A stretch of DNA of 64,000 bases from Candidatus Pyrohabitans jungbluthii (GTDB lineage Archaea > Hydrothermarchaeota > Hydrothermarchaeia > Hydrothermarchaeales > BMS3B): positions 32,001 through 96,000 of the forward strand of contig MTMD02000014.1 in NCBI GenBank assembly GCA_002010065.2, written 5' to 3'. Made by a program: the position numbers and the translations under genes. A model generated the notes under the pieces. It searched no databases. It had not been told where the DNA came from and saw only the letters and a list, made by a program, of their open reading frames with translations. Numbering within the stretch: position 1 is the first letter of the stretch; each line of letters opens with the position of its first letter. Below, in pieces: positions 38,352 through 49,784 of the stretch.

Positions 38352-38936
38352 ATGCCGCCACGGGCGATAAAAACAGTTAGAGACTTAATATACTGGCAAT
38401 ATGCAAAAATAATCGCCGACTCTGCAGGTTTTGGTAAAAGACACTGGCGCTTTGTGATGAGCAGATTCAAAAAGTTTCAGCAAGGAGAAATATTCTGGAA
38501 CGAAATCAGAGAATACGTAAAGGAGAGAGAAAAAAGAGACGAGTGTATATTTTGCGGCAATAAAGCTTCCCTTACTTTAGAGCACATGTTTCCAAGAGCT
38601 TTAGGTGGTCCAAATGATGAGAAGAATATTGTATGGGTGTGTCCCTCCTGCAACTCTTCGAAGAGGGACAGAAGGTTATACGAATATTATGCTCTGAAGG
38701 GAGGGTTGAAGACCGCAAAGTATGACGTTCCCAGAATCGCCGAGGGAAAATACCTGAAGTTCCTCTATGAAATGTTTAGAGATAAGGGTTTGCTTGATGC
38801 TGATATAGAGTACTTAAAAGAAAAAGTCTGTCCGCATTGTGATTTAAGAGAGACATGTGTCAAAGAGAAGAGTGAGGGGAAACTTTCTCCACTCTGTCTG
38901 GATGGGCTGGCTACGTTGTGTTTAATGGGGGAATAA
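38352..38936 (+). CDS. HNH endonuclease
   Basis: CIFCG...EHMFPRALGG...NIVWVCPSCNSSK. Confidence 0.88.
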   Translation: MPPRAIKTVRDLIYWQYAKIIADSAGFGKRHWRFVMSRFKKFQQGEIFWNEIREYVKEREKRDECIFCGNKASLTLEHMFPRALGGPNDEKNIVWVCPSCNSSKRDRRLYEYYALKGGLKTAKYDVPRIAEGKYLKFLYEMFRDKGLLDADIEYLKEKVCPHCDLRETCVKEKSEGKLSPLCLDGLATLCLMGE

Positions 38937-38993: not shown

Positions 38994-39188
38994 TCAACAA
39001 ACTCCTTCTTTGAATTCTATATCAAAAAGGTCTTTATTAAACCGCCTCTTAAAAATATCTTCTGCAAGCTTTTTAAACTCCGGAAACTCCCTCGCAAACT
39101 GGACAAACAGCTCTCTTGCATAATAAACACACCCACCATCAGCAGAAACCATTATTTTAAGAATCTTTTTTGCTTCTTCTTTATTCAT
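38994..39188 (-). CDS. Small hypothetical protein
   Basis: 64 aa MNKEEAKKILKIMVSADGGC..., with a GGAGG RBS; overlaps the M48 gene stop. Confidence 0.55.
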   Translation of the reverse strand: MNKEEAKKILKIMVSADGGCVYYARELFVQFAREFPEFKKLAEDIFKRRFNKDLFDIEFKEGVC

Positions 39189-39945
39189 GTATACCTCCTC
39201 TCCATTCCCTCCATGATACCTCTGAAAATCTATGAGCTTGGAAACATGCCTTATTACCATTAAAAATCGGCAGCTTATAGCCAGTGTGGATATAAAACCA
39301 ATACTCAGTAAGCTTCTTTTCATTGGCTTTAAAGTCTTCAAACTCCTTTTCAACGATGCTCCAGAATCTCTTGCTGTGCCTCTTCTCTTTTAGATGTACT
39401 ACTTCATGGAAAACCACATACCTCATCAACTCCTCTGGAAGCACAGCCAGCTTCAAATTAAAGCTAAGATTGCCGTTTGAGGAGCAGCTTGCCCACTTGC
39501 TCCTCTGATTTTTAATGAAAATTTTCCCAGGCTTCAGACATAACTTCTCAGAATATTCCTCCACAGCTTCCTCAATTTTCTCTCTGAGGATTTTCCTGAT
39601 CTGCTTTTTAATCTTCCTGTGGTGTGCTTCACTTTCAGGATTTATTAATACCTTACCCCTCTCAAAATCGATGCTTGGTTCTTCAGATGGGACTATCTTT
39701 AACTTCCTGCCGAAAAGGATAGCCTCATCTTCATCGAGGCTTTCATTTATCTTATTTACAACCTCCTGAATTTCCCTGTACTTCCGAATTATCCAGCTTT
39801 TCTTCCTCTCTAAAATATCCTCCTCGCTCTTCATATTCTCGGGAAGCACCACAAGAAGCGAGCCCGTTTTGAACTCCAGCCTGGGGTACTTCACTCGCCT
39901 CTTCTCTACTCTGTATTCAACTTCAACCCCGTTGGCTTTAAACAC
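39181..39945 (-). CDS. M48/YgjP (DUF45) metallopeptidase-like protein
   Basis: SKWASCS, LSFNLKL, YVVFHEVVH and HSKRFW; typical position after hsdR; GTG start inferred. Confidence 0.9.
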   Translation of the reverse strand: MFKANGVEVEYRVEKRRVKYPRLEFKTGSLLVVLPENMKSEEDILERKKSWIIRKYREIQEVVNKINESLDEDEAILFGRKLKIVPSEEPSIDFERGKVLINPESEAHHRKIKKQIRKILREKIEEAVEEYSEKLCLKPGKIFIKNQRSKWASCSSNGNLSFNLKLAVLPEELMRYVVFHEVVHLKEKRHSKRFWSIVEKEFEDFKANEKKLTEYWFYIHTGYKLPIFNGNKACFQAHRFSEVSWREWRGGIHE

Positions 39946-39946
39946 A

Positions 39947-42900
39947 TCAGTCCAGCTCTTCAAAGCCCTGCATGATCTTCTCATGTATCTCCTTCCTATC
40001 CTCAAAGCTCAGCTTATCCTTGAACCTCCTCAAAAACCTCATCAGCTCCCTGCCCACCTCCTTCTTAGTGGTGCTCTTCCTGCTCCACCCCTGGAATAGC
40101 TTCCCCTTTTCCACGAGCTGCTGAACAAAACCTTTTACATCTTGAATTAGCTCCTCAGCTTTGCTCAGCCTCTCCTCCAGCACCACAAGCATTAGATACT
40201 CGTGCTCGCTGAGCTTGAGCCTCTTCTTCCTCTCCTCAAGCTCAATGAGATTTTTAACCTCCTTCTCAAGCTGTGAGTAAGCCTCCTCTATCGCTAACTT
40301 CCTCTGCTTCCACTTTTTTATTATCCTCTCCACCCTCTCGGCGATGGGCTCATACACCGGGTTGCTCGCCTTGTCAACGAGCACGTACCTGTTTAGGGTG
40401 AAAATCATGTCGTATATCTTCGCCTCAGCATCGCCATAGGCTTTGCTCAGCTTCTCCAAGTAATCCTCATCCAGCCTGAGAATTGGGAACTCCTCTTTTA
40501 TCCTGTCAACCTCAATGCTTCTGTGTATCGCCTCAAGCGTCTTGGGGTAGTACTCCTCTACTTTTTCTCTCACCACCAGAGCTTTAGGCTCCTGCTCGGG
40601 GTACTCTGCCTCCTCACTGGGGTCTCTCCTCTTTGCGTATCTGCTGTAGGCGATGTAAACCTGAGTTAGCCACCCGAAGCGCGAGGCATGCTGTGCCTTA
40701 ACCGGATGAGAGCCCAGAAACTCAAAGAGGTTTCTGAGCTTTCTGTAGTTTTTGAGAAAGAGCTTTGCCTTTTTTTCATCCTTAGCTAATAATTTTACAG
40801 CAGACATCAGCGTAGCCCTGTCGTCTTTGCCCTTATCAATCCCCTGGAATATCTCCTCTGTGTCCCCAAGAAGTGTGACGAACTCTTGAGCCTTTTCATC
40901 GATGCTTATGAGCACCCCTTCAACGTCTTGCTTCTCGTAGTCTTCTAAGGCTTTCTCGAATTCTGCGAGAATGCCCACGTAGTCAATAATCAGCCCCGCT
41001 TCTTTAACGCTCCTGTACGGGCGGTTGGTTCTCGCCACCGATTGGAGAAGCCTGTGCCCTTTCAGTGGCTTGTCCAGATACATAACCTGTAGCACAGGTG
41101 CATCGAAACCCGTGAGTAGCATGTCGGTAACCACGAGTATCTTGGGCAGCTTGCCATTTTTGAACTTCTCTACAATCTCCTCCTTTATCTCCCCCACATC
41201 CTTGCCCGGGAACCTCTCTCTAAGCTCCTTAAGGTAGTCAGAGATAATCTTTTCCTTCTCAACCCTGTTGTAGGTCATCACCACCTCAACATAGCCTTTC
41301 GGTAAAAGCGTGTCCAACTCCCTCTTGTAGTGCACGCATGAAGCTCTATTCACCGCCACAACCATGGCTTTAAACTTCCCGTCCACCTCCCGCAAAAAGT
41401 GCTCTGCAATATCGCTGGCGACCCTCTTTATCCTTCTCGGATTGGAGAGCACCACCTTAATTTTGTCCAGCTTTCTGCTTATCTTCTTCTCCACCTCTTC
41501 CTTCAGCTCTTCAGGAATTTCCTCCTCTTCATACTCAAGAAAAGCCCTGAGGAGGTTTTTTCTCAGCACTATGTCGCTCTCCATCCTCGTTTGAAAGACT
41601 ATGGGCAGGGTGAAGCCGTCCTTCAGCGAGTCGAGAACAAAGTACTTGTGCAGGTAGAGCTCTCCTTTATCTGGATAGGCAAACTCCAAAAAGGTGTCTC
41701 TCCCCTTCTTTGATATGGGCGTACCCGTGAAAGCAAAGAAGAAGGCGTTTCTAAGTATGTTCTTCATCTGCGAGGCAAGGAGACCGTACTGAGTGCGGTG
41801 TCCTTCGTCTATGAACGCTATAACGTTCTTCCTTGTTGCTATCGTCTCTCCTAAGCCCTGCGCTTCCAGCTCTCTGGCAAGCTCCTCAAGCTCCTTAGGC
41901 TGGAACTTGTGGATAAGGGTGATGAATATCCCCCTCTTTCCTCGCCCGGAGTCGTGGCTCAGCACCTCTCTCAGCTTGGCTATGGAGTCTATCACCTCCG
42001 GCTTTATCTCCACATCGAGTGCTGAAAACTCCTGCCTGAGCTGCTCCTGAAGCTCCACTCTATCGACAACGAAAAAGATGGTGGGGTTCTCTAAGCTTCT
42101 GTGCCTGTACAGCTTGAGCGCCGCGAATATCATTGTCAGCGTCTTTCCGCTGCCCTGCCAGTGCCACACTAGCCCGTGGTTTCTTTGGTCTTCTCCCCTC
42201 AGGTTGCGGAGCACCCTCTCGTAAATCATGTTCGCAGCTTCGTACTGCATGTATCTGGGCAGCACCTTCGTTATCCTGCCCCTCTCTTCCCTCACAAAGG
42301 TGAAGTTCGCCAGTATGTCCAGCAGAGTGCGCCTCCGCAGCATCTCCAGCGTCGCCTCAAGCTCGTCCAGCTCACCAGCGCGCCAGCGGTATATGCTTAC
42401 CTCGTCTGCCTCCCTCACATTGGGGAAGTACCTCGCCTCCTGCTCCGCGGCGATGCTGAACTGCACATATTTAAAAAGCTCGGGCACCGTGCTCTCATAC
42501 TCCTTGACCTGCCTGTAGGCATCCCGCCATGAGACGCTTGCATCCGCAGGATTCTTGCACTCTATCAGCACCAGAGGCATGCCGTTAACGTATAGCACAA
42601 GGTCGGCTCTTATTCTCTCAGCAGCACCCTCAAAGCTCACCTGCCTGCTCACCACAAACTCATTCTTTGCAATATCCTCTAAGTCAACCAAACGAGCAAG
42701 CATCAACTCCCTGCTCTTCTCCAGCTTTATCCCCACACCCCGCCTGAAAAACCTCAGAAACTGCCTCGTGCCATGTATAGACGCGGGCAGGCTCTTTAGC
42801 TCCACAAGTATCCTGTTTATGTCCCCCTCTGTAAGCTTCTCCCCGTTTATCCTCCTCAGAGCACTGGCTAAGCTCCTCTCCAGCAGGGGCTCAGCCAAGC

Positions 42901-43003
42901 TCTCCCTCTCTAACGCCTGCGCTGGCACAAAGCGCCAGCCCTCTTCCACGAGTTTTTCAATGATGTAGTCCTCGACGGCGCTCTTCTCGGTGAAGGTGGG
43001 CAT
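39947..43003 (-). CDS. hsdR: Type I restriction enzyme R subunit
   Basis: ADLVLYVNGMPLVLIECK nuclease motif, QGSGKT, DEGHR, FTGTP, MLLTGFDAP and QSVARTNR. Confidence 0.97.
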   Translation of the reverse strand: MPTFTEKSAVEDYIIEKLVEEGWRFVPAQALERESLAEPLLERSLASALRRINGEKLTEGDINRILVELKSLPASIHGTRQFLRFFRRGVGIKLEKSRELMLARLVDLEDIAKNEFVVSRQVSFEGAAERIRADLVLYVNGMPLVLIECKNPADASVSWRDAYRQVKEYESTVPELFKYVQFSIAAEQEARYFPNVREADEVSIYRWRAGELDELEATLEMLRRRTLLDILANFTFVREERGRITKVLPRYMQYEAANMIYERVLRNLRGEDQRNHGLVWHWQGSGKTLTMIFAALKLYRHRSLENPTIFFVVDRVELQEQLRQEFSALDVEIKPEVIDSIAKLREVLSHDSGRGKRGIFITLIHKFQPKELEELARELEAQGLGETIATRKNVIAFIDEGHRTQYGLLASQMKNILRNAFFFAFTGTPISKKGRDTFLEFAYPDKGELYLHKYFVLDSLKDGFTLPIVFQTRMESDIVLRKNLLRAFLEYEEEEIPEELKEEVEKKISRKLDKIKVVLSNPRRIKRVASDIAEHFLREVDGKFKAMVVAVNRASCVHYKRELDTLLPKGYVEVVMTYNRVEKEKIISDYLKELRERFPGKDVGEIKEEIVEKFKNGKLPKILVVTDMLLTGFDAPVLQVMYLDKPLKGHRLLQSVARTNRPYRSVKEAGLIIDYVGILAEFEKALEDYEKQDVEGVLISIDEKAQEFVTLLGDTEEIFQGIDKGKDDRATLMSAVKLLAKDEKKAKLFLKNYRKLRNLFEFLGSHPVKAQHASRFGWLTQVYIAYSRYAKRRDPSEEAEYPEQEPKALVVREKVEEYYPKTLEAIHRSIEVDRIKEEFPILRLDEDYLEKLSKAYGDAEAKIYDMIFTLNRYVLVDKASNPVYEPIAERVERIIKKWKQRKLAIEEAYSQLEKEVKNLIELEERKKRLKLSEHEYLMLVVLEERLSKAEELIQDVKGFVQQLVEKGKLFQGWSRKSTTKKEVGRELMRFLRRFKDKLSFEDRKEIHEKIMQGFEELD

Positions 43004-43976
43004 TTTTAGTCACTCTTTTTAGATGTTTTTCTAATTCTACATCAAAATTTTTGATTATATTACCTAAAATTATAAATATTTTGTCTAAAGAATCTACTAT
43101 GCCAAGTCCTGGCTTATAATCTGTTGGCTTAAGTTTTCCATCTGGATACCTCGTATATGAAAAATGTGGATAAGTAATTACAGATAATATAAAAATACAA
43201 CCAGAAATTCCAAAGAGTTTAATTATTTTATCTATATTTTCATGAGTATAAGTTAAATTTCTGTCTATAGAATTCAATTCATGTTCGGGTAAATTTACCT
43301 TTTTTAGATTTTTAAGTAAATCTATTTTGAATTTTTTTATAGTTTTGCGGAGCTGTCTTATATCCACATTTTTATCAATTTTAATGAATTTTTTACATAA
43401 CTCTAAATAAACATAAATTTCATTTTTATCCATTTTTGCTAATCGTTCTGGTTTACGTTCTATGTATTTTTTTAGTTTATCTATATCAGATTTATTAATT
43501 TTCTTTTTCAAATAATTGCATTTATTCAAACAATCAATTACCTTTTCCATATTATTAAGAAATATAAAAAATGTTCTCGGCGTAATATGGCTGATAGTTT
43601 TATTTTCATCATTCTTCCTAAATAATTTGGTTAATAAACCACCTTTTATTTCTTTTTTCCTGCCGTATAAGTCATTCTTTTTGATGATGCCTAAATATAG
43701 GCCATATCCTTTGGAAATTTTCTCTACAGCTTGCTGTAAATGATATACTGACAATGACCAAATTTTTTCTTTACTTAATAATTTTGCTGCTTTATAATCC
43801 TCTTTTGCACAATATAAAAGAGAAGAAATATATTCTGCATTTCTAATATGTGTTTGGTTATGAATATATTTTTCAAGGTATTGATATAGCTCTAACACGT
43901 CTTTTAAACTAATATTTAGGCCGGCAGTTTTATTTGCAGTATTAATCGCAACTTGAATAGCCTTAATATTTGTCAA
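42957..43976 (-). CDS. Expanded HEPN-domain protein (AT-rich)
   Basis: AKEDYKAAKLL...YHLQQAVEKISKG, SH and YTRYPD match the COG2250-type HEPN signature, split by a long helical insert. Confidence 0.75.
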   Translation of the reverse strand: MTNIKAIQVAINTANKTAGLNISLKDVLELYQYLEKYIHNQTHIRNAEYISSLLYCAKEDYKAAKLLSKEKIWSLSVYHLQQAVEKISKGYGLYLGIIKKNDLYGRKKEIKGGLLTKLFRKNDENKTISHITPRTFFIFLNNMEKVIDCLNKCNYLKKKINKSDIDKLKKYIERKPERLAKMDKNEIYVYLELCKKFIKIDKNVDIRQLRKTIKKFKIDLLKNLKKVNLPEHELNSIDRNLTYTHENIDKIIKLFGISGCIFILSVITYPHFSYTRYPDGKLKPTDYKPGLGIVDSLDKIFIILGNIIKNFDVELEKHLKRVTKNAHLHREERRRGLHH

Positions 43977-45736
43977 ATTTTCACCCTCCTTCTCCCTGTG
44001 AGCAAATCATTCATCAACCCCTTCTTAATCCTCTCTAGCTTCTCCTTTCGCTTCTTCTCCAGCTCCAGTTTTTTGTCCATTGTGCTCAGGATTTCGGCGA
44101 TTTTTTGTTGTTCGGGAAGGGGTGGAAGTGGGATTTTAAAATTCTTTATAATTCTAACATTTAATTGTGGCTGAGCAGTACCATACGCAATCCTCTTAAT
44201 TTGAGTTTTAAGAAAAGGTGTTCTAAAAAGTAAACATAGGAATTTGTTATCAATATTTTTATTTTTGTTTCTAAGGATGACCATTCCTGAGTTTATTCGT
44301 ATGTGTTCATAGGGCACATTATCATCATAATATCCAACATTTCCAATTGTTCCACGAGTGGTTAAAACAATATCGTATCTTTTCAATTTTCCCTTGCCCA
44401 TTTTAGAATCTTTTTCTTTAGAAATGAATTGAGTTTCTGTAAATTTAAATCCACTTTCGGTAACATTTTTTGCATTTAAAAAGAGACAAAATCCTTTATT
44501 CGAAAAATCTGATTGTTTAGGATAATTCACTCCCCTATCTCCATCTATTACTTCTATATTGGCATGTACTAGCCTAACCACCTCCCATTCCTCTGGAATC
44601 CTACCAATCTCGGAATCCTTAAATTTTCTATATTCTCCCTTCAAAAATTGCTCAAATGTTATGGCATGTCCACCAAATTCAGTGGTTACTAATCTCAGAT
44701 TTTTGTCATTGCTTACAAGAATTAGATTATTTTTAATGGAAGTTTCGGCTATTAGTGCATCTCTTATTTGATTTTCTTTTGTTTTTTTTCCAGTTTTTTC
44801 ATCTAATTCTTGAAGCTTCAATAATATTCTATCATATAAATCTCCTTCACCAAATTTTGAATTATCCCATCTAGAAATGTCGAAAACTGTTGTTTCTGTC
44901 AGAATTACGTTTTGTTCTAATTTTTTAAAAATTTCTAAAAGATTGCTTCTTCTTTCTAATTTCTCAGTTTTTTTAATGTTTTCAATTTCATCTTTTTGAA
45001 TGTGTGTAATGTAATAGTTATATTTGGTAGGGAGTTGATCCACACTTATTTTACCGTCTAATATGGCATCAAATATATTAGTATCAAACATAAAACCATT
45101 AATAATTCCTTTTGTCAAAAGCTCCTGCATCAAGCCCCTCTTCAGCCTCTCAGTCTTGGCTATGACGGCGCTGACTTTCTGGATGGCATTGTCCACCGTG
45201 CTTAAGATTTCGGCGATTTTGTGTTGTTCTGGGAGTGGTGGAAGGGGGATTAGGAGATTTTCTAGGTTTTTTCTACTAATTCTTGACCTTGTTGCCCCTG
45301 CTGATAATCTCATTGCTTCTGCTAATATCTTGGGACTATTTAAAATATATACTAGGAATCTTTTATCTACTCTTTTTTTATTTACTTTAAGTATTGTAAT
45401 ATCTACAGCAACAATATAAGGATAGGGAAGTTCTGGAGCAATGCATGCTCTCCCTATTGGTTCAGGCATTCTTGAAATTAAAATATCCTCTTTTGGTCGC
45501 ACAAAAGTACAACTTAGTTTTTTTGCTGAATCATATGAAATAAATCTATTTGATTTATCTAAAAATCTACCTATTCCAATATCCCCAACTTGTAAGAGTC
45601 TAACACCCTCAGAAGTATAATATTTTTTAAGTATCCAATCACCATCTTTTAACTTTCCAATTTCCTTATCCCCAAGCCTCATAACCTCCCAATCCTCTGG
45701 GATTTCTCCGATTGGGGTTTGCTTAAATTTTGTCAT
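43973..45736 (-). CDS. hsdS: Type I RM specificity subunit HsdS with an internal PIN domain
   Basis: Two TRD-CR halves (IGEIPEDW / IGRIPEEW; PLPPLPEQxKIAEILST twice); about 157-aa insert with FDTN, E, RDALIA and VSND. Confidence 0.92.
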   Translation of the reverse strand: MTKFKQTPIGEIPEDWEVMRLGDKEIGKLKDGDWILKKYYTSEGVRLLQVGDIGIGRFLDKSNRFISYDSAKKLSCTFVRPKEDILISRMPEPIGRACIAPELPYPYIVAVDITILKVNKKRVDKRFLVYILNSPKILAEAMRLSAGATRSRISRKNLENLLIPLPPLPEQHKIAEILSTVDNAIQKVSAVIAKTERLKRGLMQELLTKGIINGFMFDTNIFDAILDGKISVDQLPTKYNYYITHIQKDEIENIKKTEKLERRSNLLEIFKKLEQNVILTETTVFDISRWDNSKFGEGDLYDRILLKLQELDEKTGKKTKENQIRDALIAETSIKNNLILVSNDKNLRLVTTEFGGHAITFEQFLKGEYRKFKDSEIGRIPEEWEVVRLVHANIEVIDGDRGVNYPKQSDFSNKGFCLFLNAKNVTESGFKFTETQFISKEKDSKMGKGKLKRYDIVLTTRGTIGNVGYYDDNVPYEHIRINSGMVILRNKNKNIDNKFLCLLFRTPFLKTQIKRIAYGTAQPQLNVRIIKNFKIPLPPLPEQQKIAEILSTMDKKLELEKKRKEKLERIKKGLMNDLLTGRRRVKI

Positions 45737-46686
45737 CTTAAAAGCCTCCGGCTCAATTTTTCACATATCTGATAAAGTTGTGGTATCTTCTCCATGACTG
45801 AGGGTACAATCACACCAAAACAAAAGCCAACATAATGTGCCAATATGTTAATCAAGTTGGTACCTCTTCGTATTTCAGAAGGTATTAGATTTGGTAGGGA
45901 AAATAGATAAACTATAGCTATTACAAAAACTCCCACTCTATAAGATAAAATAGGCGGGTGATTAACAAGCTCTTTTAGTTTTTTGAGATAGTGAATAGAT
46001 ATTTTTTGCATGGTTTTAAGATTGATTAAAAGAAACACAATTGAAATAACAGCCAATAGTACTTTTATATGTATTGGTGTGCCTAAATTAATAATTCCCA
46101 CTATTGAGAGATTTACAAGGATAAGAAAGCTAAAAAATTCTGCTTTTACTGAGAGAGTTGATACCTTCTTTAAATAATTATAGACTGCAAAAATAAAATA
46201 ACCTATCAAACCAGAAACAATTGCAGAAAAACCACTTATTTTGGGGATGTTTGGCGTAAAAATAATGTTACTTAAAGAAGATACAAAAGGTAAAATAATA
46301 AAAATTAAAAATGATGATACATAAAAGATTTTCTTATTTGTCTCAACATTGAATATCAAAAAGATTATAAGAAAATATGTGATTATGTTGCTTAAAAAAT
46401 GTTTATACTCTAAATGGGTGTAATGGGAGAGGAACATAGTTAATATCGTTGGGTTTGAGACTATTAAGGTAAAAGATTCCTTCATATCTGGAGGTAATGA
46501 ATATATTAATACGAGGATTCCAGGCAAGATCAAGAAGAAAAGCAAAAAGTCATACAGATTCCAGATAACCAGGACTGGATTAAGTTTTATCACTTTTTCA
46601 ATACATTTCCTTTTGACCAAATAATCTCCAAAAACGCCAAGTAATTGCCAAATAATTGCCAAGTTATTTGAGGACATAGTGGACAC
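45733..46686 (-). CDS. Rhomboid-family intramembrane serine protease (AT-rich)
   Basis: HLEYKHFLSN (HxxxxHxxxN), GFSA (catalytic Ser), AHYVG (catalytic His); multiple TM helices. Confidence 0.78.
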   Translation of the reverse strand: MSTMSSNNLAIIWQLLGVFGDYLVKRKCIEKVIKLNPVLVIWNLYDFLLFFLILPGILVLIYSLPPDMKESFTLIVSNPTILTMFLSHYTHLEYKHFLSNIITYFLIIFLIFNVETNKKIFYVSSFLIFIILPFVSSLSNIIFTPNIPKISGFSAIVSGLIGYFIFAVYNYLKKVSTLSVKAEFFSFLILVNLSIVGIINLGTPIHIKVLLAVISIVFLLINLKTMQKISIHYLKKLKELVNHPPILSYRVGVFVIAIVYLFSLPNLIPSEIRRGTNLINILAHYVGFCFGVIVPSVMEKIPQLYQICEKLSRRLLR

Positions 46687-48010
46687 CTCGTCCCTTCCCT
46701 CTTACCTGAAGAATGCCCTTTGCGACCAGCTCATTCAAATCAAGCCTGGCGCCTTCATCTGAGAGTCCAGAGAGTTCTCTATATTCCCTATTCGTAATCC
46801 TCCCCTTCTCCTTTACGTACATCACCGCCTTGATCTGCCTTTCATTCAATCCCAGGCTGCGGAGGTATTCTTCTGTGTAGATGTCCTTTCTGAAGATCAC
46901 CCAGAAGCCCCGGCGCTCCTCAAACTCGGGCTCAGGAAGCGATGCGCTGAGGCAGGCTTTTCTCATCTTGTCTATGCCGGAGCCCCACTGTTCGATTAGC
47001 CCCATGTCGTAGAAGACTCCTGCGATGCCCTTGTTTCTGAGTACTGAGGAGTGGGGTTTGTAGAGGTCTTCGATGGTGATGCCGTAGGGTAAGCCTCCAG
47101 GGCTCCACACTACAAGCCTGTCGTCGTATATCCTGATTTCAACGCTGGCAGGGATGGTGTAGTCCCTGTGGCAGACGGCGTTGATAACCGCCTCCCTCAA
47201 AGCTTCCAGAGGATATTCCCAGACCTCCTCCCTCTGGGGTTCGCCTGTCATCACAAAGCTTACGCTGATGTGCTTGCGAATAAAGTCCATTGCTTCGTCC
47301 ACCTGCTCAATTACTGTGCCGCCTATCATGCGGTCGTCGATTATCGTGGTTTCTCCTCTGAACCTGCCGCAGTGCACCGTCGCTTGAGAGAGAATACGCT
47401 GAGGTTCTCTGCCGAAGAGAAGCAAAGCCGCCCAGGTGGGCTGATTGTCTTTTATCAGGTCTAACTTTTCAAGAACCTGAAGGTGGTCTTCGTCCTCGGA
47501 GATATTCCTCCTTCCTGCGCTGTTGGCTCTCTTTATATATCTTTTTACCTTCTCGGGGTCTATATCCTCCAAGGTTGCGTCCCTCGCTGGGAGCTTGTCC
47601 CAGCTCATCCCAGCGGAGGCGAAATGCACCTGGGCAATCTCCTGGGGCTGCATAGCTCTGTTGCTGTTTCCCACCCTTCTGTAACATCTTCCTCGCACAG
47701 ATACCGGCTTGATTGGAAACTCTTTAATCGTTATAACAACAACCTTTTTCCCATCTGCCTCCTCAAGCTCAACCTCAGGGATAACTCTCGGCTCTGTGCT
47801 CTGAGAAATCTGATTTGCCCACTCTCGCAGAGTTTCTTTTCCGATATCCACGCCCTTAATCTCGCCGCTGTCGGAGACGCCTATGATTATTGCCCCACCC
47901 CTTGTGTTGGCAAAGGCTCCGGCGGTGACGATTACCTCCCTGTTGAAGTATTCCTTAAATTCGACGGTATCTGACTCTCCTTTACTTATTAGTTCATTTA
48001 AATCCACCAT
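46664..48010 (-). CDS. Schlafen/AlbA_2 + HATPase_c_4 + wHTH protein
   Basis: GESDTVEFKE, AFANTRGG, REAVINAVCHRDY, SPGGLP, IEQWGSGI; C-terminal HTH. Confidence 0.9.
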   Translation of the reverse strand: MVDLNELISKGESDTVEFKEYFNREVIVTAGAFANTRGGAIIIGVSDSGEIKGVDIGKETLREWANQISQSTEPRVIPEVELEEADGKKVVVITIKEFPIKPVSVRGRCYRRVGNSNRAMQPQEIAQVHFASAGMSWDKLPARDATLEDIDPEKVKRYIKRANSAGRRNISEDEDHLQVLEKLDLIKDNQPTWAALLLFGREPQRILSQATVHCGRFRGETTIIDDRMIGGTVIEQVDEAMDFIRKHISVSFVMTGEPQREEVWEYPLEALREAVINAVCHRDYTIPASVEIRIYDDRLVVWSPGGLPYGITIEDLYKPHSSVLRNKGIAGVFYDMGLIEQWGSGIDKMRKACLSASLPEPEFEERRGFWVIFRKDIYTEEYLRSLGLNERQIKAVMYVKEKGRITNREYRELSGLSDEGARLDLNELVAKGILQVRGKGRGVHYVLK

Positions 48011-49784
48011 CACCATTAAACCCCAGCTCCGCCAGATAATCCTCAATCTTCTCCTCTACGCTGGCGATCTCCCTCTCTATAGCCCTGAGCTCTTCCCACT
48101 CCTTGGCTACGTCTATCTCCTCAAGCTCCTCCTGCGGGAAGACGTAGAGGGTGACGTTGAGGTTGAAATCGTTCACTTTAATCTCATCAAGGCTCACAAC
48201 CCTTGAAAATCCGTCCCCGTCCTTGAATTCTCTATATGCCTGGGCTATCTTTGAGATGTGCTCCTCGCTGAGGCGGTTGAGCTTCCTCACCTCGGGGTGC
48301 TGCTCGTACTCCTGAGAGGCGTTGATGAATAGCACCTTACCCCTTCGCTCTTCAGGCTTGTTCTTGTTGAAGATAAGCACAGCGCCTGGTGCACCAGTGT
48401 TGTAAAACAGCTTCTCAGGGAGCAGAATCACACACTCTACTAAGTCTTCCTCCAGCGCCCTCTGCCTTATGGCTCGCTCTTTGCCTCCGCGGAATAGGCA
48501 ACCGTTGTCAATAACCACGCCTACCCTACCCTTTTCGTCATCTGCGCTCGCCAGCATGTGCTGAATCCATGCCCAGTCTGCTGACTGCTTCGGGGTAAAG
48601 CCGTACTTGTACCTCTCCCTCCAGAAGTCCGCCTTTTTTAAAACGCTCTCGTCGTAACCGTCCTGATTCCATGGGGGATTTGCTATAACCACGTGGAATT
48701 TCTTAAACATGCTGTCCTGGAGAAACTTTGGATAGATCAGGGTATCACCCTGCCTAAGCTCTGCATCCCTAATATCGTGAATGTAGAGGTTCATCTTGCA
48801 CAGCGCCAAGGTAGTGGCGTTGGCTTCCTGACCGTAGAGGAAGAGCCTCTTTGCCTCCTCTGGACCGTGCTTCTCCTTAACGTGGTTGTAGGCGAGGATG
48901 AGCATGCCTCCAGAGCCACAGGCTGGATCATAAACTTCCTCTCCCGGCTTGGGATCGAGAATCTCAACCAGTAGCTTTATAACCTCCCGTGGGGTATATA
49001 CCTCGCCCTCCTTTGCCTTCTGCGGTGCAAAATAGCGCAGAACCCATTCGTAGGCGTCGCCTAAAATATCCGGCGAAACATGGTGGAGTTTTCTGGCGCT
49101 GAATAGCTCAACAAGCTGCCTGAGAATCTCAAAGTTCTCAGTGCTGCTGGTGAACTGAAGAAAGTCTGCCCTGTCAACGACGTCTTTAAGCTCCGGGTTG
49201 CGCTCAGCGATAACCTTAAGCGCCTGGGAAAGCTTCACAGGTAGCTGGTTCACATCCCTTCTGATATTCTCCCACAGGTACTCCTGGGGTATATCAAAAT
49301 CGTGGTAATACTTGCTCTTCGCCTCCTCCCTCGCCTCTTCTTCGGTTAAACCATCGGCAAGAGCTTCCCTGTAAGCCCGCTCGTACTCCAGCTCCCACTT
49401 GTCGCTTATCCTCTTGAGGAAGAGGAGAATGAGGATAAACTTGTAGTCCACCCTGGTTCTTATTAAATCTGCCGCCTTCTTTAGAAGACTCTCCAGCTCC
49501 TCACGGGTTAGCTTCTCTCCGGGGGAAAGTCCCTCTCTGATTATGTCCCTCTTGCTCTTCAAGATATACACCCGCCTTCTGGCGTCGGCTTCGTCTATTC
49601 TCGCTTCAAGCCAGCCCGCTTTCCTAAGCTCTGAGAGGATTACGTTAATGTTATTCTTAGGGTCTTTAAACCTCTCCCTCAATACCCGGTAGGCATCTTC
49701 TCTTGTAAAAGCTTTTTCTTGGAACACTTCAAAAAGGGCTTCGTGCCTTACTTCGAGCCACCTGGGGAGTGTAATTTCACCCAT
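47994..49784 (-). CDS. hsdM: Type I RM N6-adenine methyltransferase with N-terminal winged helix
   Basis: GEVYTPREV, DPACGSGG, ANPPW and LFYNTG motifs. Confidence 0.96.
   Translation of the reverse strand: MGEITLPRWLEVRHEALFEVFQEKAFTREDAYRVLRERFKDPKNNINVILSELRKAGWLEARIDEADARRRVYILKSKRDIIREGLSPGEKLTREELESLLKKAADLIRTRVDYKFILILLFLKRISDKWELEYERAYREALADGLTEEEAREEAKSKYYHDFDIPQEYLWENIRRDVNQLPVKLSQALKVIAERNPELKDVVDRADFLQFTSSTENFEILRQLVELFSARKLHHVSPDILGDAYEWVLRYFAPQKAKEGEVYTPREVIKLLVEILDPKPGEEVYDPACGSGGMLILAYNHVKEKHGPEEAKRLFLYGQEANATTLALCKMNLYIHDIRDAELRQGDTLIYPKFLQDSMFKKFHVVIANPPWNQDGYDESVLKKADFWRERYKYGFTPKQSADWAWIQHMLASADDEKGRVGVVIDNGCLFRGGKERAIRQRALEEDLVECVILLPEKLFYNTGAPGAVLIFNKNKPEERRGKVLFINASQEYEQHPEVRKLNRLSEEHISKIAQAYREFKDGDGFSRVVSLDEIKVNDFNLNVTLYVFPQEELEEIDVAKEWEELRAIEREIASVEEKIEDYLAELGFNGDGGFK

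Follow-up and report, generated by a model that had tools for sequence, protein, structure and literature searches.

A predicted PIN nuclease domain inserted into the specificity subunit of a type I restriction system in Candidatus Pyrohabitans jungbluthii

We examined a 64,000-nt stretch (the window hereafter) of contig MTMD02000014.1 from the archaeon Candidatus Pyrohabitans jungbluthii, focusing on its hsdS gene, whose product (HsdS) serves as specificity subunit in a type I restriction-modification (RM) system. An initial annotation of this DNA had proposed that a PIN domain is inserted in frame in the middle of a 587-aa HsdS, and our analysis bears this out: about 157 residues (aa 212–368) lie between the first conserved region (CR1) and the second target recognition domain (TRD2), and they are predicted to fold as a PIN domain with an intact acidic tetrad. 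The PIN-HsdS fusion is a widespread family that occurs in at least two HsdS backgrounds.

The inserted domain and its HsdS scaffold

Pfam recognized two Methylase_S stretches in the 587-aa protein (E = 3.3e-53), and a model of its full length (predicted local distance difference test, pLDDT, 83.3; predicted template modeling score, pTM, 0.70) contained two TRDs, each followed by a conserved helical region (helices 168–209 and 540–580). For this model, Foldseek ranked the S subunit of M. jannaschii first (1yf2_A, E = 4e-26, TMt 0.74); the PacII and EcoKI S chains were also matched, and PIN proteins appeared as secondary matches. A search of the ESM Atlas with the whole protein returned only ordinary S-subunit clusters (scores of 0.86). 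Both TRD-CR halves described in the initial annotation are thus present. The protein shares the TRD-CR-TRD-CR layout of a canonical HsdS such as that of M. jannaschii, here beside hsdM and hsdR, and differs from it in the 157-aa PIN domain between CR1 and TRD2, which the HsdS of related genomes lack. With its TRD1-CR1-[PIN]-TRD2-CR2 layout, it appears to function as a type I specificity subunit.

The insertion point could be read from PIN-less relatives. Four of 30 related genomes encode an HsdM 68–70% identical to that of the window, and in the two whose operons we read (locus L030 of genome G005 and locus L031 of genome G019) the hsdS genes (L030:3520–4794 and L031:4225–5472) specify proteins of 424 and 415 aa that align with the window HsdS along both CRs, with CR1 nearly identical. 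Their junction reads ...LMQELLT(K/N)GI-GHE(K/R)F(K/R)DS..GRIPEEWE, and the window HsdS has its ~157 extra residues exactly there; these two relatives confirm that related HsdS proteins pass from LLTKGI almost directly into FKDSEIGRIPEEW, as had been supposed. The PIN family itself was not found in the 30 related genomes (single-protein query) or in any of the 37 other genomes of a phylum sample (profile search, E ≤ 1e-8). The site of insertion is the known permissive breakpoint of HsdS; a passage of one article describes how hsdS cut at the CR1/TRD2 point can give an active half-subunit (PMC6158711), and that article lists the circular-permutation work of Janscak and Bickle among its references.

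On its own, the excised insert scored above the Pfam gathering thresholds both for PIN (PF01850; 25.5 vs. 23.6 bits) and for PIN_4 (PF13638; 23.5 vs. 21.9 bits). An AlphaFold2 model of the insert built on an alignment of 30 sequences (pLDDT 89.4, pTM 0.85) showed alternating strands and helices, with the alpha/beta/alpha architecture and parallel five-stranded sheet of a PIN domain (strands at insert residues 3–6, 30–32, 64–66, 127–130, and 146–148). Foldseek returned 33 PDB matches at E ≤ 0.001, with PIN proteins in every row listed at that level; the top match was 1y82_D (3.7e-05), and the matches included Pfu-367848, VapC, FitB, protein-only RNase P, Nmd4, the Rrp44 PIN domain, and Nob1. 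VIA-align, which is independent of Foldseek and covered 48,161 chains, gave Z = 11.4 to VapC15 (4chg_A; root-mean-square deviation 3.2, 124 aligned) and 35–36 PIN chains at Z ≥ 8 before falling to unrelated folds near Z 5–6. A plain sequence search of the PDB with the insert gave only chance matches to NSUN4 (E of about 1). The structural check of aa 212–368 that the initial annotation had suggested therefore points to a PIN fold.

The four acidic positions named at the outset (D218, E250, D326, and D344) are correct in residue and numbering. All four are kept in 45 of 45 fused forms (42 full fusions and 3 fragments that end with their contigs) and are invariant in an alignment of 30 (alignment A1), and free-standing forms of the domain keep them in 120, 121, 122, and 121 of 122 sequences, respectively. 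T280 and S288 are likewise invariant in the 45 fused forms. We rejected an intein or homing element as the source of the insert, since no Cys, Ser, or Thr nucleophile follows it (Tyr or Lys stands there) and the fold is that of a PIN domain. The invariant M216 was considered as an internal start that would yield a second protein; free-standing proteins extended at the N-terminus conserve this residue at an internal position too, so it is probably structural.

Independent contigs also support the gene as read. The assembly chimera that might have explained the fusion was checked against other sequencing runs, whose contigs bridge both junctions with no difference: a 12,633-nt contig of run X4 covers 43900–45647, a 3,499-nt contig of run X3 (possibly the source sample) covers 43900–45493, and a 1,900-nt contig of run X5 covers 44657–45800, each with 0 differences. 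The exact HsdS protein is recorded on four contigs. GC content falls sharply at the insert, which could hint at a join, but the TRDs of PIN-less relatives are equally low in GC content at third codon positions (GC3) and more than 40 homologues in other assemblies have the same junction; that two genes or a chimeric contig were read as one open reading frame (ORF) can be counted as already refuted, with next to no chance of being right. Other contigs of runs X3 and X5 match only the 35-nt stretches 44097–44131 (CR2) and 45117–45150 (CR1) and then diverge; these look like other hsdS alleles in the same samples that have the conserved-region DNA in common.

Recurrence, exchange, and origins of the fusion

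A word-indexed search, limited to HsdS-sized proteins, found 29 further proteins of 550–594 aa that are 47–64% identical over the insert, from sources that include Omnitrophica, Aenigmarchaeota, and Thermoplasmatales; four of them bear the JGI name 'restriction endonuclease S subunit/predicted nucleic acid-binding protein'. When the insert was used as query in an exhaustive HMMER search, 894 cluster representatives matched at E ≤ 0.001, 487 of them at ≤ 1e-10. Our combined set (n = 174) holds 42 full fusions, the 3 contig-end fusion fragments, 122 free-standing proteins, and 7 other architectures; the proposed search for TRD-PIN-TRD proteins has thus yielded 42 full fusions, from bacteria and archaea. 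Their junctions follow one scheme. The N-side reads ...L(L/F)T(K/E/R/D)G(I/V/L/M/F/A/T) in 41 of 42 rows, and the C-side reads (Y/W/H/R/F)(R/K/Q/P)(E/K/V)(F/L/Y/T/V)(K/R).. followed by E(I/L/V)G.IP in 37 of 42. The remaining rows were mis-delimited by the script, and four of them have the same junction in alignment A1.

Among the named genomes, 5 of 18 loci were fusions (from Omnitrophota, an uncultured archaeon, Mesoaciditoga, an actinomycete, and Moraniibacteriota). Each of those with flanking sequence lies between hsdM and hsdR, as do three metagenome loci where the contig allows; the metagenome scan confirmed at least five loci, and L037, which ends inside the match, is unclassified. Overall, hsdM and/or hsdR accompany the fusion in 8 of 8 fused loci with flanks (L001, L002, L003, L006, L012, L034, L035, and the window). 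Locus L003 consists of hsdM-hsdS(PIN)-hsdR only, and L006 reads hsdM-UvrD-hsdS(PIN)-hsdR-YgjP. We found no VapB-like antitoxin gene in the window operon or adjoining any fused PIN; the MazE-PIN pair downstream of the fused hsdS in L002 is separate, a pair of its own. In two loci hsdR is split into two consecutive ORFs (L002:2076–5311, 379 + 684 aa; L034:5973–9123, 772 + 302 aa), which may reflect frameshifts, sequencing errors in metagenome-assembled genomes, or decay of the restriction gene beside an intact hsdS-PIN.

In these proteins the CR-PIN frame is constant and the TRDs are exchanged around it. Across 30 aligned fusions, the median of the pairwise identities was 0.67 for CR1, 0.62 for PIN, and 0.62 for CR2, and stood at 0.17 for TRD1 and 0.15 for TRD2. 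PINs at least 90% identical occurred in 21 of 435 pairs, and all 21 of these pairs had at least one unrelated TRD (identity ≤ 0.37); one pair has values of 1.00 for TRD1, 0.99 for PIN, and 0.20 for TRD2, and another has 0.16, 0.99, and 0.99. This is the classical pattern of TRD exchange, in which the PIN domain moves with the conserved frame. Because near-identical PINs sit between unrelated TRDs, the fusions look like working specificity subunits. Together with the status of the window gene as the sole hsdS found in its genome (see below), TRD swapping indirectly suggests that fused HsdS directs sequence-specific methylation and restriction.

Base composition gives a related picture. The window hsdS is a GC3 mosaic (Table 1), with hsdM at 0.63 and hsdR at 0.68. 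The PIN-less hsdS genes of L030 and L031 have the same pattern of high CRs and low TRDs. The mosaic is therefore characteristic of hsdS in this lineage, and the composition of the PIN matches that of the exchangeable parts of hsdS. This suggests a low-GC exchange pool as the source of the TRDs, and here also of the PIN, with CRs that stay matched to the resident HsdM.

A single origin of the fusion was not supported. In PIN trees, which were built with FastTree only and have many weak forks, the fused forms cluster but do not make up one clade, and 9–11 changes are needed, of which the starred branches force at least 5. The fusion appears to have arisen more than once, and the clearest case is that of L012 (Moraniibacteriota). 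Its HsdS is of a different type, with a divergent CR1 (...RTAVINQAVTKGL) and 28% overall identity to the window HsdS; its PIN groups with free-standing Moraniibacteriota PINs, and the insertion is at the same topological point. The PIN of L012 (L012:1180–3015) also has an internal expansion of about three TE..V.GVS(K/R) strand-loop repeats, which brings it to 183 aa instead of 157.

Among the 150 best of the 894 representatives, most are free-standing proteins of ~145–180 aa. Other architectures combine PIN with N-terminal transmembrane segments, with a P-loop domain, or with HEPN_AbiU2. Four of the 14 free-standing loci that we examined lie inside type I operons, namely L008 (hsdM-HEPN-PIN-hsdS-AAA_21-HNH-hsdR), L005 (HATPase_c_4/winged helix-turn-helix-PIN-215 aa-hsdS...hsdR), L016 (hsdM-PIN-173 aa-hsdS), and L038, where PIN overlaps the start of hsdS. 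PIN directly follows a HEPN gene in L008 and L011, and one representative (P0124) is a HEPN_AbiU2-PIN fusion. Portions of the HEPN survey of Anantharaman et al. describe HEPN genes embedded in RM operons and the eukaryotic PIN-HEPN protein Swt1 (PMC3710099).

The operon in the window

The window hsdS belongs to a minus-strand operon of seven genes that runs from hsdM to a YgjP-like gene, with every ORF overlapping or abutting the next (Table 1); hsdS is encoded with hsdM and hsdR, both intact, on the same strand. The source genome (1.99 Mb, 99.95% complete) contains no other hsdS that we could find, both of the Methylase_S matches in a search of that genome falling within the one hsdS ORF, and a single copy of the PIN domain was found. 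Because no second hsdS was found in so complete a genome, the RM system depends on the PIN-bearing HsdS.

Table 1. Coordinates, in window positions, of the operon genes, the parts of hsdS, and the predicted catalytic codons of the PIN domain.
Feature	Position	Strand	Details
hsdM	47994..49784	-	596 aa; first gene of the operon; N6_Mtase (E = 2.4e-115) and HsdM_N (Pfam)
SLFN_AlbA_2/HATPase_c_4/HTH protein	46664..48046	-	460 aa; operon cargo; Pfam
Polytopic membrane protein	45733..46686	-	317 aa; stop overlaps hsdS start
hsdS with internal PIN domain	43973..45736	-	587 aa
TRD1, variable target recognition domain	45257..45736	-	~aa 1–160; Pfam Methylase_S; GC3 0.19
CR1, conserved helix ending ...LMQELLTKGI	45104..45256	-	aa 161–211; helix 168–209 in model; GC3 0.63
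Inserted PIN domain	44633..45103	-	aa 212–368; 157 aa; GC3 0.19
Predicted catalytic D218 (in FDTN)	codon 45083–45085	-	
Predicted catalytic E250 (in KDEIE)	codon 44987–44989	-	
Predicted catalytic D326 (in RDALIA)	codon 44759–44761	-	
Predicted catalytic D344 (in VSND)	codon 44705–44707	-	
Linker YRKFKDSEIGRIPEEW and TRD2	44141..44632	-	aa 369–532; Pfam Methylase_S 381–569; GC3 0.23
CR2, conserved C-terminal helix	43976..44140	-	aa 533–587; helix 540–580; GC3 0.58
HEPN-domain protein	42957..43976	-	339 aa; Pfam HEPN PF05168, 26.3 bits (cut-off 22)
hsdR, intact	39947..43003	-	1018 aa; HSDR_N, SWI2_SNF2, T1R_D3-like, T1RH-like_C
YgjP-like zinc metallopeptidase	39181..40005	-	274 aa; last gene of the operon; PF01863, E = 4.9e-41

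The HEPN gene has a TTG start that overlaps the hsdS stop codon, an end that overlaps hsdR, and a GC3 of 0.19, like that of the PIN. We rejected its product as a general partner of the PIN domain, a role it cannot have because tblastn found no homologue in the other fetched loci. The 317-aa membrane protein has a 54% identical homologue (L030:4791–5672, genome G005) between hsdM and a PIN-less hsdS; since this homologue holds the same place beside a normal HsdS, the protein is not tied to the PIN. It shows a weak likeness to rhomboid and rhombosortase proteins (Pfam E = 0.05; TIGR03902 at 30.9 bits vs. a cut-off of 84).

The SLFN_AlbA_2, HATPase_c_4, and HTH protein has a 29% identical relative (L005:17–811) directly upstream of the free-standing PIN in a Nanoarchaeia type I operon, and it matches PADLOC profiles of pAgo-associated proteins (E = 1e-25). 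YgjP-like homologues follow hsdR in five fused loci (L001, L003, L006, L034, and L035). The metallopeptidase would be a candidate player if activation of the PIN domain involves proteolysis. Just past the YgjP-like gene lies an HNH endonuclease gene of 194 aa (38352–38936, + strand), and the outer flanks are housekeeping in content (archaeal LonB, TldD/PmbA, branched-chain polyamine synthase, and an RNA-metabolizing metallo-beta-lactamase).

The PIN-less operons of the two related genomes carry cargo of their own. The L030 operon (G005) has a HepT-like RNase between hsdM and hsdR, and the cargo of L031 (G019) comprises Fic, AAA_14/DUF4143, a nucleotidyltransferase-HEPN pair, and SEC-C proteins. 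In this lineage, such operons seem to serve as carriers of toxin-like genes.

Possible roles of the PIN domain

The most likely reading, to which we give about even odds, is that the PIN domain acts as an RNase effector that depends on Mg and is anchored to the methylase core, a built-in second line comparable to PrrC and Ronin. In such a case HsdS-PIN would assemble into M2S1 and R2M2S1 complexes as usual. The PIN domain, which its fold neighbors suggest is a Mg2+-dependent endoribonuclease of the VapC type, would be the built-in second-line effector of the restriction complex and would be silenced by where it sits in the assembled complex, not by an antitoxin. A change in the state of the complex, be it a phage anti-restriction protein or DNA mimic on the DNA-binding face, disassembly, or degradation, would switch the domain on, and the activated PIN would shut down translation in the infected cell. 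The genomic context fits this latent toxin because no antitoxin gene is present, relatives occur in type I operons and in conflict-type fusions, and PrrC and Ronin provide precedents.

HsdS-PIN is neither a PrrC homologue, a Ronin system, nor a VapBC pair. PrrC combines an ABC-type ATPase with a HEPN-like nuclease; our insert matches PIN families only and has no ATPase domain, and a likeness in mode of action is possible. Part of the PrrC literature describes the protein as held latent by the type I enzyme EcoprrI and released by the T4 peptide Stp (PMC12707154). The logic proposed here would be that of this passage, with an RNase effector embedded in a type I locus, latent in the complex, and turned on when a phage protein blocks restriction, but PrrC is a separate polypeptide of another fold whereas here the effector is a PIN domain within HsdS. 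Excerpts of the report on Ronin describe RonA as a peptide that is toxic by itself, that HsdMS suppresses, and that ArdA, Ocr, or Aop1 can unleash, so that the HsdM-HsdS complex is both cage and sensor for a death effector (bioRxiv 10.1101/2023.04.06.535777), as it would be here. However, RonA is a 61-aa membrane peptide and Ronin a decoy that lacks hsdR, whereas hsdR is intact in the window and the effector is a covalent nuclease domain. No RonA-sized gene was specifically sought in the window operon, where the ORFs listed were those of at least 80 aa.

The domain resembles VapC, the toxin of the VapBC pairs, which are toxin-antitoxin (TA) systems of type II, in its fold (Z of 10–11.4 to several VapC structures) and in its four conserved acids. 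It differs in that it is not a free protein, its sequence likeness to VapC is marginal, and no VapB-like gene adjoins it; its neighbors encode the 317-aa membrane protein and the 339-aa HEPN protein and not an antitoxin of the AbrB, RHH, PHD, or HTH type. The closest descriptions concern separate genes or other domains. Passages of Matelska et al. (2017) note PIN-like genes that seem to be transcribed together with those of type I subunits, in some cases with no antitoxin (PMC5499597); those are separate PIN genes, whereas here the PIN is fused into HsdS. Another accessory domain on HsdS, the ASCH-HsdS fusion of Methanohalophilus, is described in part of Bell et al. (2020; PMC7641849). The initial annotation was aware of no characterization of the PIN fusion, and we likewise found no description of a PIN domain inside HsdS in the full-text literature, a coverage that did not extend to subscription journals or REBASE. 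We regard HsdS-PIN as a putative covalent form of such restriction-linked back-up effectors.

Several observations weigh against this interpretation. The Pfam evidence is marginal, as within the whole protein PIN and PIN_4 scored 21.6 and 18.8 bits, just under the cut-off. No NCBIfam or PADLOC model names the inserted PIN domain; the NCBIfam VapC models miss their cut-off even on the free-standing relatives (18.7 vs. 80 bits). The activity, toxicity, substrate, and trigger of the PIN family are predictions only. RNase activity is assigned from the fold neighbors, and nucleases specific for DNA or for certain structures also occur among PIN-like domains. In addition, a VapC toxin acts as a dimer, but an M2S1 complex has a single S subunit. 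Ten of the 14 free-standing loci have no adjoining type I restriction genes, so the link to these systems is frequent but not universal, and we found no relative of the PIN family in viral contigs when searching with patterns of close relatives.

An alternative that is unlikely but deserves weight is that the PIN acts at the restriction target and not cell-wide. Tethered next to TRD2, it would cut RNA (transcripts or R-loops) or flap or single-stranded DNA near the recognition site of unmodified DNA and so aid loading, translocation, or inactivation of the invader. The covalent attachment of the PIN to the subunit that reads DNA, in a complete system of the R2M2S1 type, would suit this role, as would the presence of hsdR in 8 of 8 fused loci with sequence downstream of hsdS (the window included), which is unlike the hsdR-less Ronin. 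A non-toxic nuclease needs no antitoxin, and the PIN-like superfamily, according to part of one survey, includes DNA-processing nucleases (PMC5499597). However, the closest fold neighbors (VapC, protein-only RNase P, and Nob1) are RNases and not of the FEN type, HsdR has a nuclease domain of its own, and many of the settings in which free-standing relatives are found are unrelated to RM, as well as fusions of the kind typical for abortive effectors.

Less probable again is that the system is an addiction module, in which assembly with HsdM masks the RNase and loss or silencing of the operon or of hsdM frees HsdS-PIN to arrest the cell, giving post-segregational killing in place of phage sensing. 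The selfish, self-stabilizing behavior of RM and TA systems, for which a passage of PMC5499597 cites Kobayashi and Mruk, agrees with this idea. So do the horizontally acquired, low-GC character of the module (GC3 of 0.19 vs. 0.63–0.68 in hsdM and hsdR), the failure to find the PIN family in the other genomes of the phylum sample (0 of 37), and the lack of a separately encoded antitoxin. Against it, type I systems already cause post-segregational damage through HsdR. In addition, a cell that lost the toxin would lose its putative mask with it, and nothing suggests that HsdS outlives HsdM.

We consider it very improbable that the PIN is a non-catalytic structural or oligomerization module that pairs two methylase cores through PIN-PIN contacts, or a spacer. 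PIN domains commonly dimerize, which would allow such pairing. The insertion site is also a permissive loop that might tolerate passenger domains (in the part of PMC6158711 concerned), and the ASCH domain fused to HsdS in Methanohalophilus (a passage of PMC7641849) is a comparable case. However, none of the 45 fused forms departs from the four acids, T280, or S288, even at a median PIN identity of 0.62, and a passive spacer is disfavored because such conservation would not be expected of one.

Within the reading of the PIN as a tethered RNase effector, we also advance a more specific version that is possible but doubtful, in which HsdS-PIN is a single-polypeptide 'guarded restriction enzyme'. 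Here the DNA-binding state of the methylase core would allosterically gate the RNase at the end of the coiled coil, and a phage DNA mimic or anti-restriction protein would trigger the shutdown of translation.

Restriction enzymes and the toxins of abortive infection are commonly regarded as distinct layers of defense, and the few links known so far, PrrC and Ronin, rely on separate proteins. If the proposed role is correct, a nuclease effector inside the specificity subunit would couple the sensing of foreign DNA (or of sabotage of that sensing) to cell shutdown more directly than any link known so far. The fusion also shows the central junction of HsdS to be a natural docking site for passenger domains, which is useful for engineering and for the re-annotation of 'long' S subunits, and the free-standing relatives, which comprise hundreds of clusters with no family model, would gain a predicted role. 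On the 'guarded restriction enzyme' reading, repeated independent capture at one HsdS junction, together with the separate genes in other type I operons, would mean that many type I systems carry a PIN back-up, one that has been overlooked because it is annotated simply as 'subunit S'.

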